The translations under genes were made by a program, and so were the position numbers. A DNA stretch of 64,000 bases from Moorena sp. SIO3A5 (lineage in GTDB: Bacteria > Cyanobacteriota > Cyanobacteriia > Cyanobacteriales > Coleofasciculaceae): NCBI RefSeq assembly GCF_010672205.1, contig NZ_JAAHHD010000019.1:31963-95962 (forward strand), in the 5' to 3' direction. The stretch's first letter is position 1. Every line of letters begins with the position of its first letter. The notes beneath the pieces are model-generated. The model made no database searches and had not been told where the DNA came from. It was given only the letters and a program-made list of their open reading frames with translations. Of the stretch, positions 1 to 56,759 are shown piece by piece.

Positions 1-480
1 CCGCAATTGATTGACCATAAAGTAGTAATGCTCGGAGGGTAGGGAATCTCCTCCTTAAAAACCCAATCATCAATTAACAGTTGGTGTGTGAACCCAGAAA
101 AATCACTATGCACGAGAAAACGGTACGGTGGGGTTAGAAGTTACCGTAATCAGAGGGTCGCCTTTATAGTTAGTCGGCTATGAGTAAAAAGTTTTAACCT
201 TTGTGATTAAGGCGACCCTCTGATAAGGTTTCGTTTCCGGCACACCGGAACCAAGTGAAAAGGAAGAGAAACGGACTTTTTAAGGCACTTCCTATTAAGT
301 AGCTAAACGCTTAAGGAGAATCGCCCTCTGGGTCTGTCGTGAATTGACTAGGAACTTGGTTTTGACGGGTTTTTGGTTAAGTATTGTCCTATTTTTGGCG
401 GCGTCATAGATAGGAACACGGCGGTTTAAGGCGGCTCGTTGATCTAGGAATCCCCGCGCCTTTAGATCGGGGAGTGTCAA
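1..480 (+). repeat. Copy A of a ~450-bp structured non-coding repeat element (paralogous to 1423-1900); its left end is cut by the window edge. It carries an extra hairpin insertion (cagagggtcgcc...ggcgaccctctg, ~130-235)
   Basis: Blocks align with 1470-1900: gtagtaatgcYcggagggtagggaa, ggtgtgtgaacccag, cggtacggYgggg, ...aaccaNgtgaaaNgNgaagNaacggactt...taagtaRctaaacgc..., and the terminal hairpin aatccccg..ctttaga.cggggagtgtcaa. There is no ORF. Confidence 0.55.
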
Positions 481-1025
481 CGCCACTGAATAGGACTACC
501 AGTTACTTTAGTTGATTGTGTTGAAATCTCTTCCCCTGCTAAAAGAGACGCGATCGCACTGTTTAAGTAATGGGCTTGTACTGCGTCACCATCTTCGGGA
601 TTATCATCAACCGATCCATTATAGCATACAATTCCCTTATGGTCAATTAAAAATGCCTCAGTGGTTTTCTGGGCACCAAAGCTGTGAGCTACATCTTGAG
701 TTGGATCCCAAAGGTAAGGAAAATTCAATTGCTGATCTTGGCAGAACTGCTTCATCTCCTCAAAACTCTCTGCGGGGTACTGATAAACATCATTGGCATT
801 AATGCCCACTAGGGTAAAACCTTGATCTTCAAACTGGTCTTGAATGTGTTTGAGTCTTGGGATGTAGGACTTGACATAGGGGCAGTTGTTGCCTAAGAAA
901 ATAACTCCCACTCCTGAAAAACGTTCTAAGTAACGGCAGAGATGGTGAACCTGCTCATCAGTTCCCGGCAATTCAAAATCCGGAGCATAACTGCCAATGG
1001 TGATGATGATTTTTTCTATAGTCAT
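477..1025 (-). CDS. thioredoxin-fold thiol-disulfide oxidoreductase (redoxin/TlpA-AhpC family)
   Basis: 182-aa ORF with the APDFELPG...VIFLGNNCPYV redoxin signature. The 3' end overlaps the end of repeat copy A. Confidence 0.7.
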   Translation of the reverse strand: MTIEKIIITIGSYAPDFELPGTDEQVHHLCRYLERFSGVGVIFLGNNCPYVKSYIPRLKHIQDQFEDQGFTLVGINANDVYQYPAESFEEMKQFCQDQQLNFPYLWDPTQDVAHSFGAQKTTEAFLIDHKGIVCYNGSVDDNPEDGDAVQAHYLNSAIASLLAGEEISTQSTKVTGSPIQWR

Positions 1026-1387
1026 GGGTGATGGGTGATGGGTGATGGATCATGGGTCAACCCCCTTTACAATGCAAGCTTTGGTTAAGGGGAGATGATG
1101 CGATCGCTAATTAGCTCATAGACGAATTTAGCATCAAGGGTAAATTTCCCGACCCAATTCTTAATCGAGCCTATTCCACCTGCTCAGAATCTAAAAGAGC
1201 TTCTGGAGCATTTTGCCAACCTTCACCATAGGTTGTCGCGGCTCAATAGGCAATCCGTAAAATCACCACTCCTGCAGCTGACTATTTACTAGAAAACTAA
1301 ACACTGAAAGCCCGGCATCTTTAGATTAGATCGGGGATGAAAGTGACCAGCGAGTTTAGTCGCCGTAAAAAAACTTCTATCAAGAGG

Positions 1388-1416
1388 TTGTCGCTACATT
1401 AGCGCCATAGTATAAT
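1388..1416 (+). promoter_or_regulatory. consensus sigma70-like promoter (TTGTCG-N17-TATAAT) heading repeat copy B
   Basis: -35 box at 1388-1393, 17-nt spacer, TATAAT at 1411-1416. A ~60-bp module including this promoter is shared with the promoter upstream of the tnpB-like gene at 2511-2560. Confidence 0.5.
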
Positions 1417-1422
1417 TGAAGT

Positions 1423-1900
1423 ATAGGGTACAGGCTGAAAAACCGCAGGCTGAGCCGGGAGAGAGACCCGTAACTTACCGACCTGAAAGTAGTAATGCCC
1501 GGAGGGTAGGGAAAATCCTCCTTTCTTGATGCAGTCGCTCATGGGGGAAACCCCCAAGACCGCGCTGCATCGCTAAAAACCCAACCATCGACTACCAATC
1601 GGTGTGTGAACCCAGCAAGACAAAACTTGAGAAAACAACGGTACGGCGGGGCACGCCGAAACCAGGTGAAACAGGGAAGCAACGGACTTGATAAGGCACT
1701 TCTCAATAAGTAACTAAACGCCCAAGGAGATTAGCCCGCTGGGTCTTTTGTGAGCTAAACTCAAACCTTGGTTTTGACGGGGCTTTGGTTTAGATATTGC
1801 TTAGTTTTTGGCAGCTTCAAAGATTAAGACACAAAGGTTTAAGGCCGATCGTAGATCTGGGAATCCCCGTCTCTTTAGAGCGGGGAGTGTCAAAAAATGT
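1423..1900 (+). ncRNA. Copy B of the ~450-bp structured repeat element, probably transcribed from the promoter at 1388-1416. It contains an inserted small hairpin repeat (gatgcagtcgctcatgggggaaacccccaagaccgcgctgcatc, ~1520-1565)
   Basis: No ORF; about 75% identity to copy A in conserved blocks; ends in the hairpin ccccgtctctttagagcgggg; sits directly downstream of a consensus promoter. Confidence 0.4.
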
Positions 1901-2510
1901 AAAGGTAACGCTATGGCATAACTTGGGATTTTTTGATCATGTCCTCCTCTTTCACAGCCCCAATCAGGGATCAGATTGAAACAAAAACCTGGATTTGGCA
2001 GGGCTTTTCTATTGGGTATAAAGCTTACGGTCATTCTGGACCAGCTGTGGTTATGGTCCATGGCTTTGGGGCATCTTCCGGACATTGGCGCAAGACCTTG
2101 CCAGTGTTGGGGGAAACCTGCCGATGTTATGCCATTGATTTGATTGGCTTTGGGGCTTCAGCTAAACCGACTCCTGGTATAGAAATAGACTACACCTTTG
2201 AAACCTGGGGGCAACAAATTGCCGATTTCTGTCGGGAGGTGGTTGGTGGTCCGGCGTTTTTAGTCGGAAACTCTATTGGTTGTATTGCGCTGATGCAAAC
2301 CGCTGTAGATAATCCAGAGCTAGCCAAAGGAGTCGCCCTGCTCAACTTTTCTCTACGACTACTCCATGAGCGTAAACGGGCTGAACTGCCTTGGTATCAG
2401 CGTCTTGGCGCACCACTACTTCAACGATTCTTAAAGATTAAGTGGGTTGGCCTCGCATTTAGACCCCTAAAAATAGGGATAAATCGGTATTTAATACCAC
2501 AATTCGGACA

Positions 2511-2539
2511 TTGACATTTTACTAGCGCTAGAGTATAAT
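2511..2539 (+). promoter_or_regulatory. consensus sigma70 promoter TTGACA-N17-TATAAT driving the tnpB-like gene
   Basis: TTGACA at 2511-2516, 17-nt spacer, TATAAT at 2534-2539. The -35, spacer, -10 and ~20 nt downstream are homologous to 1388-1440. Confidence 0.55.
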
Positions 2540-2564
2540 TGAAGTGTAGGATTCAGACCTAACT

Positions 2565-4022
2565 ATGCCCAAGAAAGTAGACACAGCAAAAAAGAGATCA
2601 ACTCAAATCGTTCCTGTCATAGGGATGAGTGAGTTGGTTCAGGCTGAGTTGCTGTCTACCATGAAAAAACTGGGCATCGTCAGGTCTGAATCCTACAACA
2701 AGCTAGGTAGTATTAGTCATTGGGGTCTTGATTGGAAAAAAGCCTATCCAGAGGTCAGAAGTTTTAGGACTCCTGATACCCTGGGACTGCCAGCGAAATT
2801 GATGGAATGGACGGTCAGTGATGTAGCAAAAGCTATCACAGCTCAGCAGGCAGCTTGCACTGATGCGGTAATTAAGAAGATTTACAAAAAATTTCCAGGG
2901 AGGGACGGCCAAAGGAGAAGAAAGGAACTTTGTAAACAGCTTAAGACTTTAGCTTTTATAGATGATCCATTGCTGCATAGACTTGTTAGGAAGGAATTTC
3001 AGCGAGGGCATTCCTGGGTCAAGAATCAGATAGTCTATCAACAAGTAGGATATAAGTGCAAAAGGCTCTCTCGTAATACTTACCAACTAGAGTTGGCTGG
3101 ATTGAGGAGAGGAAAGAGAAACAAAATAACCGTTAGGTCTAATCGGAAAATAAAAGGCCAGATTAGACTGGTATACAAGCAACTCTTGGGAAAGTTTGAG
3201 ATTCACTTTTTAGTAGACTATGGCACCGTAGAAATCCCTGCCAACCGTCGAGCTATTGGGGTAGACAAGGGGTACACAGAGGCTTTTTATGATTCAGATG
3301 GTCAGGCACACGGAAAAAACTTAGGAAAAGTAGCAACCAATAAATCGGATCGCATCTGTGCAAAAAACCGCAACAGAGGGAAGCTTTGGGCGCTTCATAG
3401 AAAACTAGAAAAAATCGACCCAGCCAAGTCGGCTCGAATACTCAAAAATAACCTAAGTAGAAAAACTGAAAATCGCCGATACAGAAAAAATCAATCAGAG
3501 ATTACGGCCATAATAGGAGCCGCATCTAAGTCCCTTTTTAATGGGGAATCATTAAAAGTATTTGCCGAAAATTTAACACAGCCGATTAGAAATAAACGCC
3601 AGTCTAAGGCCATGTCCCGTAAACTTAATAGTTGGATGAAAGGAGTAATGCGGGAATCCTTGCAGAAATGGGCTAATTGGACTGGCTCGGTTGTAACAGA
3701 AGTCCAGCCTAGCTACACGTCGCAAGTTGACTCCGTAACTGGAACCCTATTAGGGAAAAGGAGCGGGGACAATTTTACCAGATTCAATGGGGTCGTGTTG
3801 CAGGCTGACCACAATGCTGCCAAAAATGTCCTTAGCAGAGGTACGGACAAGGATATCACCCGGTATATGAGTAAAACTGAGGTGCAGGCAGTATTGTTGC
3901 GCCGTACCGCGCGTTTCTTGGAAGGTATGGGACTGAGTCTGCTAGATGCAGTTGAGCTTGGATGGCTTGACTGCAAGCATAGTAAAACTCGGGCTTTCAA
4001 GCAACTCCTCAACGGGATTTGA
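2565..4022 (+). CDS. tnpB: TnpB-family (OrfB, RuvC-like) protein of 485 aa with a degenerate zinc finger
   Basis: RuvC-I IGVDKG, RuvC-II VFAENL and RuvC-III ADHNAAKNV motifs are present. The segment between RuvC-II and RuvC-III (SYTSQVDSVTG...FTRFNG) has the spacing of the TnpB CxxC...CxxC zinc finger but no cysteines. Confidence 0.6.
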   Translation: MPKKVDTAKKRSTQIVPVIGMSELVQAELLSTMKKLGIVRSESYNKLGSISHWGLDWKKAYPEVRSFRTPDTLGLPAKLMEWTVSDVAKAITAQQAACTDAVIKKIYKKFPGRDGQRRRKELCKQLKTLAFIDDPLLHRLVRKEFQRGHSWVKNQIVYQQVGYKCKRLSRNTYQLELAGLRRGKRNKITVRSNRKIKGQIRLVYKQLLGKFEIHFLVDYGTVEIPANRRAIGVDKGYTEAFYDSDGQAHGKNLGKVATNKSDRICAKNRNRGKLWALHRKLEKIDPAKSARILKNNLSRKTENRRYRKNQSEITAIIGAASKSLFNGESLKVFAENLTQPIRNKRQSKAMSRKLNSWMKGVMRESLQKWANWTGSVVTEVQPSYTSQVDSVTGTLLGKRSGDNFTRFNGVVLQADHNAAKNVLSRGTDKDITRYMSKTEVQAVLLRRTARFLEGMGLSLLDAVELGWLDCKHSKTRAFKQLLNGI

Positions 4023-4549
4023 GGAACGTCCAGAAAGATAAGTGGCAGGCTTGACTCCAATTGCTGAATGACCACTTCTCACTCGGACCACAATAGATTG
4101 AACCTTGACCGTTTTGTACCGGATTATCACGATTTATTACGGTTTAAGAGTATCCCAGTATTTTTTTAGTCAGCTGGCTAAGCCTAAAGTAGTGCGTAAT
4201 ATTCTGTTGCAAGCCTACTGTCGTCCAGAAGCCGTCACTGATGAACTGGTTGATCTAATCATGGCACCAGCAGCTGATCCCGGTGCAGCTGATGTTTTTA
4301 TTGCCTTTACTAGCTATTCTCAAGGACCACTACCAGAAGACCTGATCCCAATTTTGCCTTGTCCTGCGATCATACTATGGGGCAGCAAAGACCCCTGGGA
4401 ACCCATTGACTTGGGACGAGAATTAGCGAAATTCCCCACTGTAGAAAAGTTTATTCCTTTAGAAGGTTTGGGTCATTGTCCCCAAGATGAAGCACCAGAG
4501 ATAGTCAACCCGATTTTGCTCAATTGGATTGGGGAAAATCCGGTTTAAG

Positions 4550-5075
4550 GTTAGCTGGTTGAAGGTTATTAAAGGGTTGAAAGTTAGCTGGTTGAAGGTT
4601 GAAGGTTAGCTGGTTGAAGGTTGAAGGTTAGCTAGTTGAAGGTTTAAGGTTTAGTAAGCATTCAGCTATCAGCTCTCAGCTATCAGCTCTCAGCTATCAG
4701 CTCTCAGCTCACAGCTATCAGCTATCAGCTCTCAGCTCTCAGCTATCAGCTATCAGCTCTCAGCTCTCAGCTTTTGAATAAAATAAGCTGACGGCTGACT
4801 GCTGACTGCTGACAGGTAGTAGGGTGGGCAAATACCAAGCCAATGACCATTTAATCTGGAATTCTGTCATTTGCCCACCCTACAATAACTATAGCTTTTG
4901 AATAAAATAAGCTGACGGCTGACCGCTGACGGCTGACCGCTGACGGCTGAATGCTTACAAGGTTTAATGTTGAAGGTTACCCAGTTGAAGGTTTAAGGTT
5001 TAATGTTGAAGGTTACCCAGTTGAAGGTTTAAGGTTTAATGTTGAAGGTTACCCAGTTGAAGGTTGAGTTAACAA
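4550..5075. repeat. STRR-type repeat island. It holds gttgaaggtt-type repeats, a CAGCTAT/CAGCTCT heptamer array, a CTGACGG heptamer array, a central 15-bp-stem hairpin (tagggtgggcaaat...atttgcccacccta), and a 32-bp unit x3 (ggtttaatgttgaaggttacccagttgaaggtttaa)
   Basis: Direct reading of the sequence. The whole is bracketed by the inverted GTAAGCATTCAGC (4656) and GCTGAATGCTTAC (4948). Confidence 0.85.
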
Positions 5076-5196: not shown

Positions 5197-6024
5197 TCAA
5201 CTATCCTTAACTGGTACCAGCTCTAATTGATAGCGATAGAGAGCCACAGGTTTTTCCAATGCTTTAAAGTAATCGGGGTCTTGTGGTGAAAGGTAAACCG
5301 CTGTGACTTGGTCAGCTTTAATGATCGGAGTAGGTGATTTATGGAACTGATATGCTGTTGTGGTTTCTACTTCGTTGAAAAAAGGTCGGCGAGTACCGCG
5401 AAAGACTTGGTTGACAACTTCTGTAGCATTGAACTGATCCGGAGCTGGTATTTCAGAAGCACGTCCAGTAATCACCGAAACTAGTTGGCTCCCGGTGCGC
5501 AGAATGGTAATCTGACGATTAGGGGAATTGGGGTCTACTTTGACGGCTCTAATTATGCGATCGCCTAAGTAAGCCCTAGCAATATTCAACCCATTGAACG
5601 CTCGGTCAGCAACCACCTCTTCAGCAACCACCTCTGAGGTAGGTTTTAATACTGATCGATTTTTTCTAGAACGTCGAGTTCTAAACGGAATAAACCAATC
5701 CCCAAGCCCTGAGCTTGATTTCCCAACTTGTTGAAACCGCACCAGAAAACTAATTGGTTCTTTTAGATGACTGCGATTACCTTCAAATCCTGGTGTCACT
5801 ATTTCTGGTGCTAGAGGTGCTATCTGCTCGATCAGGGTGCTGGTAACTTTCCAAGTTCCCTTCATCCAAGTGGGATATACCAAATCCCCGGTCGCCGCTG
5901 TGACTGGTGGTTTGCTTTTCCAATCGGGAAACTGACCTAAACGCTCAGCTAACTCTCCTGCCTGAGCCTCACCACCAGCCAGAAGCAAGGTTAAAACCAG
6001 ACATAATCCCAGAATTCTTCTCAA
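5197..6024 (-). CDS. hypothetical secreted protein (N-terminal signal peptide)
   Basis: 275-aa ORF with the hydrophobic N-terminus MRRILGLCLVLTLLLAGGEAQA. Confidence 0.5.
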   Translation of the reverse strand: MRRILGLCLVLTLLLAGGEAQAGELAERLGQFPDWKSKPPVTAATGDLVYPTWMKGTWKVTSTLIEQIAPLAPEIVTPGFEGNRSHLKEPISFLVRFQQVGKSSSGLGDWFIPFRTRRSRKNRSVLKPTSEVVAEEVVADRAFNGLNIARAYLGDRIIRAVKVDPNSPNRQITILRTGSQLVSVITGRASEIPAPDQFNATEVVNQVFRGTRRPFFNEVETTTAYQFHKSPTPIIKADQVTAVYLSPQDPDYFKALEKPVALYRYQLELVPVKDS

Positions 6025-6538
6025 ACCAAAATTCCTCTCACCTTAGACTGTTCAGCTATCTTGCCCGTAAGGCAGGTCGCCCCATCTAATCAAGAATCAA
6101 AGCAAGAGGGGAGTGCTGACCATTACCATTTTAACTTTGGGTGTCTGCGCTATCGGTGTTTCCACTGAGATATCCTTTTAGATATTCTTTAGCCTAATCT
6201 AGGGCTAACTGTCAAGTATAGTTCACTCTCGCGAGAACTGTCCAAAATTTGTAGAGTTCTTCCTAATCAATAGATTTTACTTAATTTTATTTCAATTCCT
6301 GGTAATTAAAAATTATTCTAATCGGCTTACCATAAGATAGCTTTAAACTATGTGGCTATATCAAAAATATTTAGTGAAGTTAATATAAATTAACGGGAAC
6401 AAAGTTAATCAGTAATGTTCATAATAAAAGAGTATATATAATACTAGTGTATATACTTAGATCTTCATAAAGGCTTCAAAATTTCAGTTAAGCTCACCAG
6501 CCTGATGTTTACCAAACCCTGACTCAGAGTAGTATTCC

Positions 6539-9700: not shown

Positions 9701-10893
9701 TAAAGACTGCAGTGATTTACGTCAGTTTTGTCGAAAACTCAAATACATTACCAGGCACTCGATGTCAAACTCCCTCAATCCCTGTTCCCAAAATCGACCG
9801 ACGGTTTGGTTACCGACTCTCTGAGGTGCCTCAAGCACCAGAGCGTTGCTTACCACAAGCAAACGACCAGCTGGAACTGTTGGTGATCACCGCTGAAGGT
9901 AATCCAATTGTCCGGCGAATCAATGGTGCCAGTCGTGATCAAGTCCTAGCTGTGACCAATAGATTTCAGCGATCGCTTAGCAATCCCCACAGCTTGGATG
10001 CCAAAGCCCACCATTACCCAGCTGAGCAACTTTATCGATGGATCATAGGGCCATTAGAGAAGGAATTAAACGCCCGCAAGATTAAGAGCCTAATATTTGC
10101 TATGGATCAGGGTTTGCGTTCCCTACCTATAGCAGCTATCTACGATGGGCAAAAATATCTGGTTGAGAAGTATGGTGTTAACTTGGTGCCTAGTCTGAGC
10201 TTAACCTATTCTCGTCACACAGATGTTAGACCATTCCGGGTGCTGGCAATGGGAGCATCGAAATTTCCTTATCAACAGCCTTTGCCTGGGGTAGAAGTGG
10301 AGTTAACCACCATCACTGAAACACTGTGGAAAGGTCGCTCTTTTCTCAACGAAGCCTTTACTCTGGAAAATTTAATGGCTCAACGACAACAGAGGCAATA
10401 TGGCATCATTCACCTAGCCACCCATGCAGAGTTCAACTCGGGAACTCCTAACAATTCCTACATTCAGATGTGGAACCGCAAACTAAGGCTGTATGAAATG
10501 AAAAATCTACTTTATGAGCCATCGGTAGAGTTGTTGGTACTCAGCGCTTGCCGAACCGCTTTGGGCAATCGAGAAGCGGAGTTGGGTTTTGCTGGGTCAG
10601 CCTTTCAGGCAGGAGTTGACTCGACTTTGGCAACCCTTTGGTATGTTAGTGATCAAGGTGCTCTGGGGCTGACTACTGAGTTTTACCGTCAGTTGAGAAA
10701 GACATCGAGTAAAAGCGAAGCTTTACGACAGGCACAGTTAGCAATGATTCAAGGCAATGTGCGTATCGAGAATAATCAGTTATATGGCTCGGGCAAGAAC
10801 ATCTCGTTACCGCCAGAATTGTCAGGACCAGGAAAACAAAGCTTTTCTCATCCCTACTATTGGGCTGCTTTCACTCTGGTTGGGGATCCCTAG
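6781..10893 (+). CDS. large secreted protein with an N-terminal filamentous-haemagglutinin/TPS (haemagg_act) domain and a C-terminal CHAT protease domain
   Basis: TPS-domain signature NPNLFLMNPAGIIFGANSQLDVPGSFTATTA. Parallel-beta-helix style repeats (LSANNNLTLSASQLSS). C-terminal CHAT His/Cys dyad context (IIHLATHAEF ... LVLSACRTALG). The ORF starts at 6682, but the probable signal peptide begins at Met34 (6781). Confidence 0.7.
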   Translation: MSQIKLAVSRISQSLAAVSLLVAHIGVMPTQAQPIPANDGTQTQVTSDGNQFDIDGGTPSGDNLFHSFEEFGLDQDQIANFLSQPGIKNILSRVTSRNASVINGLIKITGEGNPNLFLMNPAGIIFGANSQLDVPGSFTATTATSIGFGDENWFNAFGDNDYSTLDGTPSAFAFGTSETPGLIFNEGIEILAGNNLTLIGGTVINTNQLELPEGTITIAAVPGESLVKISQQGLLLNLEVEALTSDPSTAEQSFTPLSLAELLTGDGVSHATEFTDNGDDTVTLTGSGITIAPGDVTAKDITAQRAILSANNNLTVSANNDLTLSASQLSSKNTTLSANNDLTLSASQISSDNITLSANNNLNLSESQLSSTKDLTLLAKETVLIRDTTDNSFQAVAEGNLKIQGDGGIDIQALNNPDTRFQSGGDLTLVSATNGKISTDAHFASGGNFSIENLAGQPRDFVSLQDPIITADGDVTFGDYTGSSLKVESTGNIEAGNIKITAPDTGLADLDPDSASDIGQSDINTLKTSRAVILRAGLSKDELTNPVTDNSGDASSQVTDNSGDASSGSITIGNIDTSVNPVNSTNDGPVIEGNAGPVILSAQGDIIFRSNSDGTNNDFTQIRTTERNGNNSGNVFLETKEGSIRIEGVGLDINTEVSGGDKGGKVTFQVPNLNNIVDIIDSGKLQLRTRARGSGDAGDVEFVSQQEISPEQEQQIRDQIQEDVRAFGEGDIGDLIFSRFPTDTNTEEETNQQNDTNQQEETDLIEETDLIDTGETDLIDTGETDLIDTGETDLIDTGETDLIDTGETDPKLNPEPSLGEGNEIVNETSPDTSKPNDGDGGSQPPVSPSDKTISDTPEPSSSDPGSSDPGSSDPGSSDPGSSDPGSSDPGSSDPGSSDPGSSDPGSSEPGTPTASSQSNSPTEEVSPESDPVYLIEEAFTKEYESHFQRPFKTKINTQNDVRNRTRELERETGLKTAVIYVSFVENSNTLPGTRCQTPSIPVPKIDRRFGYRLSEVPQAPERCLPQANDQLELLVITAEGNPIVRRINGASRDQVLAVTNRFQRSLSNPHSLDAKAHHYPAEQLYRWIIGPLEKELNARKIKSLIFAMDQGLRSLPIAAIYDGQKYLVEKYGVNLVPSLSLTYSRHTDVRPFRVLAMGASKFPYQQPLPGVEVELTTITETLWKGRSFLNEAFTLENLMAQRQQRQYGIIHLATHAEFNSGTPNNSYIQMWNRKLRLYEMKNLLYEPSVELLVLSACRTALGNREAELGFAGSAFQAGVDSTLATLWYVSDQGALGLTTEFYRQLRKTSSKSEALRQAQLAMIQGNVRIENNQLYGSGKNISLPPELSGPGKQSFSHPYYWAAFTLVGDP

Positions 10894-14972: not shown

Positions 14973-15701
14973 ATGTTGAACTTGACCTACAGCTACCGAA
15001 TCTATCCAGGACTTGACCAGGAAGCTAAAATGCTTGGCTGGTTGGAGCAATGCCGTCGCGTATATAACTATGCTTTGGCAGAGCGTAAGGACTGGATCAA
15101 TTCGCGTAAATGCTTGGTCAATGCTTGCAGCATCAGACTCGAATACATCATCCCTGCTGACACGCCATACCCTGACTACTACAAACAGCAGAACGCTCTT
15201 ACCAAAGCCAAAAAGTTGATTCGACAACTGAAGGCAGTTCACTCCCAAGTTTGGCAAGATGCCTTGAAGCGACTGGATAAGTCGTTCAAGTTCATGCAAC
15301 ACAGAGGGTTTGGATTTCCTCGATTCAAAAAGTCGGGCCAGTATCGTTCGTTTGTGTTTCCGCAGTTCAAGTCGAATCCTGTCAACGGATTTGAGATCAA
15401 ACTGCCGAAAATTGGAACCGTGCCGATCCACTTGCATCGACCTATTCCTGAAGGATTTGAGATCAAGCAAGTTCGGGTCGTGTTGAAATCGTCGGGCTGG
15501 TACGCTCAGCTGATTCTGCAAGCCGATGTTTCTGTTCCTGAACCAATGCCTGATGGTGATCCGATCGGAATTGATTTGGGACTCGAAAAGTTCTTGGCTG
15601 TATCGACAGGTGAACTGGTAGAACGCCCTCGCTTTTTCGTGGATTTGCAAAGCAAGCAACGATTGCTGCAACGCAAATTGAGAAACAAGAAAAAGGGTTA
15701 G
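14973..15701 (+). pseudogene. tnpB: truncated IS200/IS605-family tnpB (N-terminal ~60% only)
   Basis: YRIYPGLDQEAKMLGWLEQCRRVYNYALAERK N-terminal TnpB signature and the RuvC-I motif GIDLGLEKFLAVSTGE. The ORF stops after 242 aa, before RuvC-II, the zinc finger and RuvC-III. No tnpA is nearby. Confidence 0.7.
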
Positions 15702-25899: not shown

Positions 25900-26450
25900 G
25901 TAAGCGCAAGAGTTTGACTTCTGACTTCTGACTTCTGACTTCTGACTTCTGACTTCTGCTATAAATTCAGCGATTGGGGGACTGTCAGCATTGAGCTATC
26001 AGCCCTGGTGAGGTGTAAGCATTCAGAATTCAGCACTCAGCACTCAGCACTCAGCAGTCAGCCTAATGCTGAAGTAACAGAGATTAAAGCAATGCTTACC
26101 TGTTTTATTCAGATGTAACTCAGCATTATTCCAATGCTTACCTGTTGTCTTGATGCAAAGCGCGAGTGGGGGAAACCACGGCAGTCGCTCATGGGGGAAA
26201 CCACGGCAGTCGCTCATGGGGGAAACCCCCAAGACCGCGCTGCCTCCCCAAGACCGCGCTGCCTCCCCAAGACCGCACTGCCTCCCCAAGACCGTAATGG
26301 TGCGTTTGACCCGTAATTTAATTCGCCACGGGTCGCACCTCTGCATCGCTTATTCAAAAGCATCTCAAGTAGCACCATCTGTAGGGCATTAGCTGATGAC
26401 TGATAGCTGATAGCTGATGGCTGATGGCTGATGGCTGATAGCTGAATACT
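25900..26450. repeat. STRR-like island with GACTTCT x7, CAGCACT x4, a tandem gggggaaaccacggcagtcgctcat / ccccaagaccgcgctgcct repeat block (26150-26300), a partial 41-bp palindromic element (26300-26345), and CTGATGG/CTGATAG heptamers
   Basis: Read directly. Flanked by gtaagcattcag (26020) and gctgaatacttac (26440). Confidence 0.85.
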
Positions 26451-29347: not shown

Positions 29348-32300
29348 TTAAAGATCCAGCTGCTGCTGGGCTAGGTGGTAGTACAGACCTTTCTCAGCCA
29401 TGAGTTCGGAGTGGGTACCGCGCTCTGCGATCAGACCTTGGTCGAGGACCAGTATAGAGTCGGCATTGCGCACCGTAGAAAGACGGTGGGCAATGATGAA
29501 GGTAGTGCGATCGCGACTAATGCGAGCTAAATTTTGTTGAAAACGTCGCTCGGATTCTGTATCTAGGGAGCTAGTCGCTTCATCGAGAATCAGAATCTTG
29601 GGGTTACCCAGCAAGGCTCGGGCGATCGCAATCCGTTGCCGTTGTCCCCCAGACAGGTTAGACCCTCGCTCCCCAACCTTGGTGTTGTATCCCAGGGGCA
29701 GGTTTTGAATAAACACATGAGCTTCAGCCAATTTGGCAACTTCTACCCCTTGTTCGAGGCTATACTCAGGTTTGTATAAGGTGATGTTCTCTAAAATCGT
29801 CCCTGAAAACAAAAAGCATTCTTGAGGTACCACACCTAATTGAGAGCGCAAAGACTGGGGAGAAACATGTCGGATGTCGTGGCTATCAATCAAAATACGG
29901 CCTGTAGTTGGGTGATAGAGTCCTTGGAGCAGCTTGACCAAGGTACTTTTGCCCGAGCCACTGCGTCCGACAATGGCTATGGTCTTTCCAGGGGCAACCT
30001 CGAAGGAAATGTTTTGAAGGGTGTATTGTTCATCATCCTCACTATAGCGAAAGCTGACATTGTCAAACTGGACATGCCCCGCGATCGCAGGCAATGGCAT
30101 CAGGGGTTTTTGGGTATTCTCTTCTGGCTGGGTGGTCAAGACATCATCGAGCCGTTCCACCGATACCAAGATTTCCTGGAACTCATCCCAAAGTCCCACC
30201 AAAGACAAAATCGGGCTAATCACCCGACCAATGAGCATATTGAATGCCACAAATTGACCAATCGTGAGCTGTTCCTGAATTACCAGACTTGCCCCGAACC
30301 ACAGTAAAGCCGTGCCGCTGAGGTTATTAATCAACCCACTGACTGACCCTAAGCCGTTGGCCAAGTTCTGTCCTTTGAATACCATATTCAACTGACCCGT
30401 GAGGCGGTCTTCCCAGCGCCAGCGCACCTCTTGTTCAGAGGCTGCTGCTTTGACAGTTGCTACTCCCGACATCATTTCTACTAACAGGGAGTTTTGTGCT
30501 GCTGTTTCTTTAAAGATTTCCCTGGACACTTGGCGTAGAAATGGACTGGCAACTATGGTCAAAATCGCAATCGGTACAATCGTTGCCAGGACCAGCAAGG
30601 TTAGGTGCCAGTTGTAGTAGAGCATCAGCCCCACATAGACAAACATCATTACCACATCCAGCCAAGTAGCAATGGCTTGCTGAGTCAGGAACGCCTGAAT
30701 TTTCCCAGTTTCCTGGACTCGGGTCAGGATGTCCCCCACCTGGCGGGATTCAAAAAACTTCAGGGGTAGTGTGAGGGTATGCTTAATAAAACCACTGACA
30801 AAGGTAAGACTGAGTCGATTGGAAAAGTAATCCAGCAGGTAGCGTCTGGTGACACTCAAGCCTATGCTCCAAAGGCCAAAGATGACTAGACCAATTGCAA
30901 ACACATTGAGGGTAACAACACTTTTGTTAACCACCACCCGATCCAAAATGATTTGGGTAAACAGGGGGGTAATCAGACCAAAAACCTGGAGCAGTAGGGA
31001 AGCTAGGATAATTTGCAACAGGACTATGCGATGGGGCCATAGCAATCCCCAAAAGCGATTCAGAGAAATCTTTTGATTGGGAGTCCCTGCTAGCTGGGGA
31101 GTAGGATTCAACAGCAGCGCATATCCTGTCCAACCCTCTAGAAATTGTTGTCGAGAAAGCGTCCGCTTTCCCACAGCTGGATCCGCAACAAGTACCTTCT
31201 CCCCTTTGACCGAATAGACAACTATATAATGATCACCTTGCCAGTGAGCAATCCAGGGGTTACTCCGATCCGCTAGGCGAGCTAAAGACGCTCTAACTGG
31301 AGTAGCTTGAAATCCCAAGGTTTCTGATGCTCTGGCTAACCCTTTCAGGGATGACCCAGAACGCCCCACCCCTGCCAGATTCCGTAGGGAATTCAAGCTA
31401 AATCGTTTGCCCCAGTAGCGTCCAATCATTGCCAAGCAAGCAGCGCCACAATCTGAAGAGGATTGCTGTTCAATGAAGGGATAGCGTTGCCACAACCCCT
31501 GAATAAAAGGTCGCTTCGTCGGTACGGGAAATGGTATCAGTTTAGACTCAGCCTGGGTCGAGTTACTTTGTGTTTCAGCATTTCCATTGGTAGGGAGGTT
31601 GGATGGAATTAGCGGTACTCTGTGACCGGGCTGAGTACGGACTGGGTGGACTATGGCGCTAGTCGCCCCTGATTTCTGGTGTCCATTTTCAGAGGTTTGA
31701 CCCGTCTGTGGACTCAACTTTGCCAGCACCGGTGCCATCATTTGGGCAGTTTCCCAATGTTCCTTTGGTAGATGGGTTACCCATAAATCGCTTTGAGCAA
31801 TCCAATCTTCCGGCACTGGCTGAGGATAGCCCCAACTTTCGCCCCTTGCAATAGTTAGTGGGCAATTCTGTTGAACTCCGCCCCTTTCAATCTGACCACT
31901 ACGTAGCCAGTAACGACCAACTTGGCCAGACTTAACTAAGGACTCCCCAGCGGAAATCCGTGTGTCTACCAGGTAGGGCAACAATTGCTGTAGAGTGATG
32001 CTGTCAAGCGATCGCAATGCTGTTAAGGTCTTGAAGAAAATCAAGCGTTGCCGGTGCTGAGCTTGTTGCTGTAGGTGTTCGAGCCACTCCGGTAGCTGTT
32101 CTAACCAAGGTTGCAGTTCAGCTAAGGACATCCGAGCAATCTGTCCTGAACTCGCTGCGATCGCTTGGTAAGGATAAGATAGGTTGCACAACAGTTCCTC
32201 AGCCCCAAAGGTTGCCCCCTCTTCAAGAACCTGTACGGATACGTCCCGCTGTTTTTCACCATCAAAGCTTAGCAGCCGCACCCGCCCGCAACAGACCACG

Positions 32301-56585: not shown

Positions 56586-56670
56586 ATTTGCCAGGAGAGG
56601 TGGCAGAGTGGTCGATTGCACTCGACTTGAAATCGAGCGAGCCGAAAGGCTCCGGGAGTTCGAATCTCCC
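56586..56670 (+). tRNA. tRNA-Ser (anticodon UGA), type II with a long variable arm
   Basis: 85-nt cloverleaf: acceptor GGAGAGG/CCTCTCC, anticodon stem CTCGA/TCGAG with loop CTTGAAA, variable arm CGAGCCGAAAGGCTCCG, T-loop TTCGAAT. CCA is not encoded. Confidence 0.85.
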
Positions 56671-56759
56671 CCTCTCCGTTTTATAGATTATATTTGTTCA
56701 AAGTTGAGACTTGAGGGTTGAGGGTCAACCCTCAAATTTTTTCTTTCTTGATGCAAAGG

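Follow-up and report, generated by a model that had tools for sequence, protein, structure and literature searches.

A mobile gene-less IS608-type element of Moorena with a conserved RNA fold and a predicted internal promoter

Two copies of a repeat beside a peroxiredoxin gene

The window analysed here, 64,000 nucleotides (nt) of contig NZ_JAAHHD010000019.1 of Moorena sp. SIO3A5 (positions 31,963 to 95,962, G+C 44%), begins with two copies of a non-coding repeat, followed by a tnpB-like gene within an interrupted alpha/beta-hydrolase gene. We found that each copy is a mobile gene-less element of the IS608 type, an insertion sequence (IS) of the IS200/IS605 group, and that the interior of the element has a conserved RNA fold behind a predicted promoter. 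Comparison loci are referred to by L numbers, and ^ marks an element junction.

Alignment of positions 1-480 (copy A) with about 1423-1893 (copy B), both on the plus strand, gave long blocks of 75-82% identity, in agreement with the initial annotation of a two-copy repeat. The RNA cores of the two copies are 77.7% identical, and their homology is lost abruptly after ...GGGGAGTGTCAA, at 480 and 1893. The complete copy B occupies 1290-1893 with TTAC directly before it, and this unit begins about 130 nt 5' of the promoter, which is as far as the homology between the copies reaches, so the extent of about 450 bp first assigned to the repeat was too small. Copy A has its 5' end outside the window, and its left end, promoter and first ~60 nt of RNA, all upstream of position 1, were read in L002 and L003 (complete element, 7241-7892 of L002); there the 5' part reads TGTATAAT then ATAGAGTACAGGC, for which the counterpart in copy B is TATAAT...ATAGGGTACAGGC.

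Each copy also has its own small hairpin insertion, as had been noted. In copy A this is a hairpin of 107 nt (132-238, plus strand, inverted repeat I4) that resembles a miniature inverted-repeat transposable element (MITE), lies inside RNA helix 9, and is missing from copy B and most family members, while in strain L003 a related hairpin is found at another position of copy B. In copy B it is a dispersed mini-repeat hairpin of 51 nt (1524-1574, plus strand) between helix 5 and helix 6, which recurs at window positions 26206-26246 (97.6% identity), on Nostoc plasmids, and at the identical position in family members L005, L022 and L024; it was also the sole match when PLSDB plasmids were searched with copy B by distant blastn. 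Nested short dispersed palindromic mini-repeats of the GGCCACGCTACGCGAAC type are present at 26160-26290 and 1524-1574 of the window and in several family copies, and they insert into each other, into RNA copies and even into a tnpB open reading frame (ORF) in L003. These are presumably akin to the small dispersed repeats described for Nostoc.

Element ends and empty sites

On the left, the family is bounded by TTAC (or TTAT)^TAGAAATCCCAACACTG-AAAG-CCCCG...CGGGG-ATGAAAG and then a second hairpin, with TTAC or TTAT directly before the left end in most copies. Some copies have a degenerate left hairpin or GAAA in place of AAAG, and variant copies have an AAAG-CCCCGTCCTTCTAGGACGG left hairpin (AAAG-CCCCGTCC...GGACGG), which is the left-end hairpin of the canonical TnpB element in L003. 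On the right, alignment and a regular-expression scan gave GAAT-CCCCG...CGGGG-AGTG-TCAA^flank, where GAAT is the right guide sequence of IS608. In copy B (all on the plus strand) the TTAC target is at 1286-1289 and the left end at 1290-1387, comprising TAGAAAAC..., AAAG (1307-1310), a degenerate hairpin (1311-1336) and the second hairpin GCGAGTTTAGTCGC (1350-1363), and the right end at 1861-1893 consists of GAAT (1861-1864), the hairpin CCCCGTCTCTTTAGAGCGGGG (1865-1885), AGTG and TCAA (1890-1893). The right end of copy A (448-480, plus strand) is built in the same order: GAAT (448-451), hairpin CCCCGCGCCTTTAGATCGGGG (452-472), AGTG, TCAA (477-480).

Empty sites were reached through clusters of peroxiredoxin homologs. 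On the L039 scaffold, whose flanking genes are 93-96% identical to those of the window, both copies are absent: pyrH is separated from the peroxiredoxin gene by only 55 nt, and the latter from the hydrolase gene by 338 nt. The scaffold ceases to be collinear with the window at 480/481 and 1289/1290, the second break falling exactly after the last base of the TTAC before copy B. Site A is empty as GGATTAT^CGCCACTGAATAGG; the occupied site GGATTAT^TAGAGG...GTGTCAA^CGCCACTG compares with GGATTAT^CGCCACTG when empty, which corresponds to exact excision with zero target duplication. At site B, L039 has 22 extra nt containing two further TTACs, which leaves the right junction (TCAA^AAAATGTAAAGG) and the TTAC as the only exact points.

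Previous studies showed that in IS608 the TTAC target, which is also the left cleavage site, precedes the left palindrome by about 19 nt, that AAAG stands at the foot of this palindrome, and that cleavage on the right is at a TCAA lying 3' of the right palindrome within the element (PMC3201880). The present element shares with IS608 of H. pylori the TTAC on the left, GAAT 5' of the right hairpin, the TCAA end and the lack of target duplication, with slightly different distances (AAAG about 21 nt from the cleavage site versus 19 nt in IS608; TCAA ending 8 nt past the hairpin versus 10). It differs from IS608 in that it has neither tnpA nor tnpB, its interior is an RNA gene, and some copies use TTAT. 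We conclude with high confidence that each repeat is a mobile structured-RNA element, namely a complete gene-less IS200/IS605 (IS608-type) element of about 600-650 bp that resembles the palindrome-associated transposable elements (PATEs).

Both window copies and the copy in L012 are intergenic, copy A merely clipping a stop codon. It was inserted at a TTAT overlapping the stop codon of the peroxiredoxin gene, which is convergent with it (L039 ~10741-10750), and its terminal TCAA (477-480) provides the new stop (CGA TAA to CGT TGA), so that the protein still ends in ...QWR; read-through from copy A would, judging from this arrangement, run antisense to the peroxiredoxin gene. The two copies are direct-oriented and flank this gene, which a composite element formed by the left end of A with the right end of B could in principle mobilise.

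Distribution of the family

A copy census, which had been proposed at the outset, revealed a multi-copy family. Species-representative genomes were scanned with the most conserved block, requiring a strict 20-nt match, and 20 further loci were found (six in M. bouillonii PNG, five in M. producens 3L, eight in Moorena metagenome-assembled genomes (MAGs) and one in a Nostocaceae MAG), each a full-length relative with 68-86% identity to copy B. Across the family, the RNA cores compare pairwise at 65-98% identity (median 80%). Every copy ends at ...GGGGAGTGTCAA, with sequence beyond it that is unrelated between copies; the copies sit at unrelated loci in the Moorena genomes, and two Moorena species share an orthologous copy, represented by L016 and L017. 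All 20 loci are free of an ORF between the promoter and the end. A metagenome scan with GGAGGGTAGGGAANNNCCTCCTT gave only two chance pattern matches and no added member, and viral contigs scanned with the helix-9 block gave no match.

The Nostocaceae copy (L012 4284-5071, minus strand) is a single RNA copy between Yfr1 (Rfam, 60.8 bits) and trxA. Its promoter is TTGCCA-N17-TATAAT, and it has neither the TAGCGC motif nor a recognisable left-end hairpin. At 68% identity it retains the entire fold. Rfam searches of L003, L009, L012 and L024 returned nothing except this Yfr1. The family is currently known from Moorena and one Nostocaceae genome only.

A predicted promoter shared with the tnpB-like family

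Directly inside the left end of copy B, we infer from the sequence an element-internal sigma-70-type promoter directed at the right end (1388-1416, plus strand), with -35 TTGTCG, a 17-nt spacer containing TAGCGCC (1400-1406) and -10 TATAAT (1411-1416). It matches the consensus at 10 of 12 positions, and the TTGACA-N17-TATAAT in front of the tnpB-like gene (2511-2539) at all 12. The copy A promoter, TGTATAAT, has an extended -10, and both hexamers with the 17-nt spacing are kept in nearly all family copies, 20 or more of them (family form TTGACA-N17-TATAAT).

The homology of this promoter to that of the tnpB-like gene, claimed in the initial annotation, was borne out: the copy B and tnpB promoters have 34 nt in common at 85% identity, and the whole-family profile matches the tnpB promoter with E = 5.8e-5. 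The sequence TTGACA-N-(C)TAGCGC(T/C)A(G/T)AGTATAAT precedes both the RNA copies and tnpB-only paralogs (window, L030, L031, L032), the form in the latter being TTGACA-N-(C)TAGCGCTAGAGTATAAT with the unusual spacer motif (C)TAGCGC(TAG). This motif was found nowhere beyond the RNA and tnpB-like families in 296 kb of fetched DNA or in the window. Its confinement to two families means that the shared promoter is not a generic cassette, a possibility that had been raised against its significance. The spacer palindrome CTAGCGCTAG looks like an operator. No terminator-like site was found in the element before the flank, so transcription probably runs through the right end into the flanking DNA.

Conserved fold of the RNA

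The RNA of copy B is predicted to start about 7 nt past the -10 box, and the structured region extends from 1423 to 1893 (plus strand), the scaffold ending at TCAA. RNAalifold on 19 distinct sequences predicted a fold of 87 pairs in 14 helices, with compensatory double changes at 26 pairs spread over 10 of the 14 helices. Standard pairs occupy 96.9% of cells, versus 33-45% when the partners are slid by 1-3 columns, and 132 cells are changed on both sides, versus 4-13 in the slid controls. None of 500 shuffles reached the observed pairing, double changes or covariation score; the shuffle controls can be inflated by phylogeny, while the slid-partner controls preserve relatedness. The fold of the repeat RNA is thus conserved, and the compensatory changes that the initial annotation of a structured non-coding RNA called for are real.

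Long-range helices close the structure, namely AAACC/GGUUU (columns 104-108 / 365-369) and ACCCAGC/GCUGGGU (137-143 / 266-272). Screening for covariation extended this fold by a helix at 193-195 / 241-243, a hairpin, optional, at 335-341 / 345-351 and, immediately 5' of the right-end GAAU, a pseudoknot-like pairing (249-252 / 387-390), and the stem of the right-end hairpin itself (helix 14) covaries. Helix 1 starts 3-4 nt past the predicted start and shows a G-C to A-U compensation, which together fit transcription from the conserved promoter.

No coding signal was detected: ORFs differ between copies in frame, strand and length, and neither TnpB type matched any copy below E = 1 in tblastn. 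The idea that the repeat is a pseudogene was rejected because there is neither a protein remnant nor a conserved ORF. At the gathering threshold, Rfam 15 found only a tRNA at 56594-56678 in the whole window, and at E <= 10 only four chance-level matches in 1-4300. Among the curated Rfam 15 families, RNase P, tmRNA, group I and II introns, HEARO, OLE, GOLLD, ROOL and others were tried as candidates and gave no match, in line with the earlier statement that the repeat is neither RNase P RNA nor tmRNA.

The neighbouring IS607-type element

The tnpB-like gene belongs to an IS607-type element at 2453-4156 (plus strand), with the promoter at 2511-2539, the coding sequence (CDS) of a zinc-finger-less TnpB-like protein at 2565-4022 and an RNA-like 3' region at 4023-4156. 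The 485-aa protein matches Pfam Cas12f1-like_TNB above the cut-off and NCBIfam guided_TnpB below it, has no cysteines at the zinc-finger position, and gave no match in a sequence search of PDB. Moorena has dozens of paralogs, 70-89% identical to it, and some are immediately preceded by a serine recombinase (HTH_17 + Resolvase; L025, L027), as in the IS607 architecture. The element interrupts the alpha/beta-hydrolase gene and is polymorphic, being present in the window, L002, L003, L036 and L037 and absent from L035 and L039. The empty sites GTTGGCC^AGTATTT (L035, reverse complement, ~5421-5470; L039, 9345-9373) place its limits at 2453 and 4156 and the crossover at CC, which reads GG on the opposite strand. 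The sequence on the left of the target (28 nt, 2425-2452) resembles the right end of the element (4129-4156), as expected for a serine-recombinase (IS607-type) element.

The ends of this family read ...GCC^TCGCA(T/A)TTA(G/A)ACCCC...GGTTTAAGAGTATCCC^, with right end ...TATCCC^, and seven copies share a conserved 3' region of about 135 nt that ends at GGTTTAAGAGTATCCC and looks like a cis guide RNA. IS607-type TnpB elements are known to carry a right end element RNA (reRNA) in cis (PMC10711439; PMC11061315), and the element at 2453-4156 is like them in its conserved ~135-nt 3' region, the serine-recombinase tnpA of its paralogs and its dinucleotide crossover. The RNA repeat is unlike them, having other ends and no such 3' region, and shares only the promoter module. 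The similarity first seen between the 3' part of the repeat and the right end of the tnpB element proved not significant, since nhmmer did not report it even at E <= 10. A functional tie of the RNA to the zinc-finger-less TnpB is possible, the evidence for it being solely the shared promoter; because this family has its own 3' region, an RNA in trans is not obviously needed. A search for RNA-RNA duplexes between copy B and the tnpB-like transcript did no better than shuffles, the method being uninformative at these lengths.

Two further observations concern the tnpB-like family. Positions 2545-2571 and 2671-2697, that is, the 5' untranslated region with the start codon and CDS codons ~36-44, are complementary over 27 nt (93%), and the pairing core, AGACCTAAC-ATGCC with TTGGGATTGTTAGGTCT, is retained in paralog L025; this pairing probably controls translation of the family. 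Contig L004 (1707 bp, about the size of the tnpB-like element) is apparently a collapsed repeat.

Comparison with canonical TnpB elements

Canonical TnpB elements with ends of the same type as the RNA element were found in genomes that also have RNA copies (L003, L009). In GCA_010671945.1 (the contig of L003), copies A and B are accompanied by a 416-aa zinc-finger TnpB about 3 kb away (L003 1155-2405), whose element has TTAC, an AAAG-hairpin on the left and GAAT-hairpin-AGGATG-TCAA on the right. A putatively compatible TnpB is therefore encoded in the same genome as RNA copies. The canonical TnpB elements of L003 and L009 and the canonical gene-less element, a PATE, of L024 end in GAAT-hairpin-AGGATG-TCAA or AGGT-TCAA. 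The L024 element (5672-6040, minus strand), about 360 nt and unrelated to the RNA family, lies 50 nt downstream of an RNA-family copy and has canonical-type ends, with CCCCGTCCTTATAGGACGG as left hairpin and GAAT-hairpin-AGGATGTCAA. Truncated canonical proteins occur as well: window positions 14973-15701 encode a TnpB N-terminus of 242 aa (HTH_OrfB_IS605 and partial OrfB_IS605), and L002 has a comparable 256-aa fragment upstream of frr.

Homology to omega-RNAs was searched for with a full profile, with a 'minimal' profile from which the central 240 nt were removed, and with a covariance model of the 3' domain, for which a first model, R1, built from the RNAalifold fold of the excised 3' domain and differing from the full-length fold, was replaced by R2. 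The right end of copy B resembles canonical TnpB right ends (E = 5e-6 and E = 2e-5; covariance model, E = 0.006). By eye, AAACC...GGTTT beside GGAAT is also common to the canonical elements, a resemblance that is not significant.

Stand-alone omega-RNAs and PATEs that act in trans with TnpB are documented (Altae-Tran 2021, as cited in PMC10691335; Meers 2023, PMC10055086). The Moorena element is PATE-like in having no protein gene, IS605-type ends and subterminal hairpins, in occurring as dispersed copies alongside TnpB-encoding elements with the same end type, and in an RNA that is predicted to point to the right end with variable flank beyond. It is unlike known PATEs and omega-RNAs in its scaffold of about 420-470 nt (roughly 100-250 nt in the known PATE and stand-alone omega-RNAs), its own predicted near-consensus promoter, its 14 helices with long-range closures, and the absence, beyond the right-end hairpin, of detectable homology to the omega-RNA regions of the TnpB elements examined.

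Possible role of the RNA

At odds only slightly better than even, we favour the reading that this IS608-type gene-less element carries a promoter and an RNA that acts as a stand-alone omega-RNA for a TnpB supplied in trans; by analogy with the known systems, we hold with moderate confidence that the RNA may be such an omega-RNA. A Y1 transposase, presumably present elsewhere, would mobilise the element in trans, inserting it 3' of TTAC or TTAT without duplication. The internal promoter would drive an RNA of about 420-470 nt toward the right end, which would fold into the 14 helices, several of them long-range, and whose 3' end would include the right-end hairpin and then a tail derived from the flank. 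A TnpB from a canonical IS605-type element elsewhere may bind this scaffold and use the flank-derived 3' tail as guide, and after excision it may re-cut the vacated TTAC-plus-flank site, TTAC serving as the transposon-associated motif (TAM), so that recombination would restore the element. The orientation, the promoter, the lack of a terminator-like site and the sharp loss of homology after TCAA are consistent with a right-end scaffold followed by a flank guide. For copy B the candidate guide would be 1894-1913 (plus strand), which is unconserved between copies; neither flank 'guide' has a second match within the window.

Several points weigh against this reading. With 420-470 nt, the scaffold has two to three times the length of known TnpB omega-RNAs, and nothing in the known TnpB guide RNAs corresponds to its large 5' and central domains. 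By nhmmer profiles and covariance model, similarity to the canonical TnpB elements (L003, L009, L024) is confined to the right-end hairpin, and since the transposase needs this hairpin as DNA, it is no independent evidence for an omega-RNA. All 20 loci with the 5' domain lack a tnpB ORF, which leaves the family without a known autonomous parent. The promoter type is common to the IS607-type zinc-finger-less TnpB family and not to the canonical TnpB of L003, and L012, whose fold is intact although no left end can be recognised, hints at a role that does not depend on mobility.

A less probable but still serious alternative is that the RNA is cargo unrelated to canonical TnpB guiding, for example a large regulatory RNA, a ribozyme, or a scaffold for zinc-finger-less IS607-type TnpB-like proteins with which the common promoter, by its palindromic CTAGCGCTAG spacer, would co-regulate it; the IS608-type ends would then be the vehicle only. 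It would account for the spacer motif in many diverged copies of both families and nowhere else in 296 kb, for the expansion of both families in Moorena, for 5' and central domains without a homolog in canonical elements, and for L012. However, the tnpB-like family owns a conserved RNA-like 3' region ending at its right end, Symploca and Calothrix have the protein family while the strict 20-nt scan found RNA copies only in Moorena and in a single Nostocaceae MAG, Rfam yielded no match to a ribozyme or intron family, and RNA orientation with read-through into the flank is what an omega-RNA requires.

Somewhat further down the scale, the RNA may represent an undescribed large class (~420 nt, 14 helices, long-range closures, a pseudoknot by the transposon end) and more than an oversized TnpB guide: it would be the scaffold of another effector or have a catalytic or regulatory role, with the IS608-type ends as its vehicle. 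The zinc-finger-less IS607-type TnpB-like family, which has the operator-like promoter in common with the RNA, would be one candidate effector, and this would cross-wire two transposon families.

It is improbable that the repeat is an internally deleted non-autonomous derivative of the neighbouring tnpB-like IS, as the initial annotation had suggested: it is indeed a non-autonomous IS, but not one derived from that element, whose ends are IS607-type rather than IS608-type. The promoter module is common to both, and the left-end layouts are superficially alike (hairpin, GAT(A/G)AA, second hairpin, promoter), though aligned at low posterior probability. Against a common origin, TTAC^TAGA...TCAA^ without duplication stands opposite ...GCC^TCGCA...TATCCC^, a crossover at CC and, in paralogs, a serine-recombinase tnpA, body and right end have no significant similarity, and there is no protein-level remnant.

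We give equally little credence to the copies being decaying IS remnants or pseudogenes whose structure is an artefact of relatedness. MITE or mini-repeat insertions, some of them within helices, and the inflation of shuffle controls by phylogeny would agree with decay, but controls that do preserve relatedness fall to 33-45% pairing and at most 13 double changes versus 96.9% and 132, compensatory changes affect 26 pairs over 10 of 14 helices, and L012, from another family and 68% identical, has the same fold.

IStrons are described as chimeras of a group I intron with IS605 or IS607 elements (10.1101/2023.11.20.567912). An IStron-like self-splicing intron between IS605-type ends is the least likely reading of all, as the likeness to IStrons (a large structured RNA with long-range helices within IS200/IS605-type ends, overlapping the right-end region) is offset by the lack of any group I signature in Rfam or group I/II intron match at E <= 10, by a conserved internal promoter of its own, by a helix 1 that begins past this promoter and not at the left-end boundary, and by intergenic sites of the window copies and L012, at which copy A clips only a stop codon.

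The general kind of element is known, stand-alone guide RNAs on gene-less IS605-family elements having been characterised in few cases; what is new is an unusually large, promoter-equipped gene-less IS200/IS605 RNA element, whose fold is maintained by compensatory evolution across paralogs differing by 15-35%. The family is missing from Rfam and accounts for long 'intergenic' stretches in Moorena genomes. If it is linked to TnpB, it would be an extreme case, with a scaffold two to three times the usual size and its own promoter, which would show the limits of omega-RNA scaffold expansion, bear on the origins of tracrRNA-like RNAs and provide a natural, separately transcribed guide architecture for engineering. 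The expanded scaffold recalls the large guide RNA of Cas12k. If it is not linked to TnpB, it would be a new large bacterial RNA spreading as transposon cargo. The palindromic promoter spacer held in common with an unrelated IS607-type TnpB family points to joint regulation of two transposon families in one host.

Tandem repeats downstream of the hydrolase gene

In the window this stretch, positions 4535-5000, is densely filled with tandem repeats that lie beyond the hydrolase gene, in which the heptamers AGCTATC and AGCTCTC recur in 14-nt periods. An inverted counterpart (GCTGACGGCTGACC...) makes a 49-nt inverted repeat in the same region, and 22-nt units of GGTTGAAGGTT are present there too.

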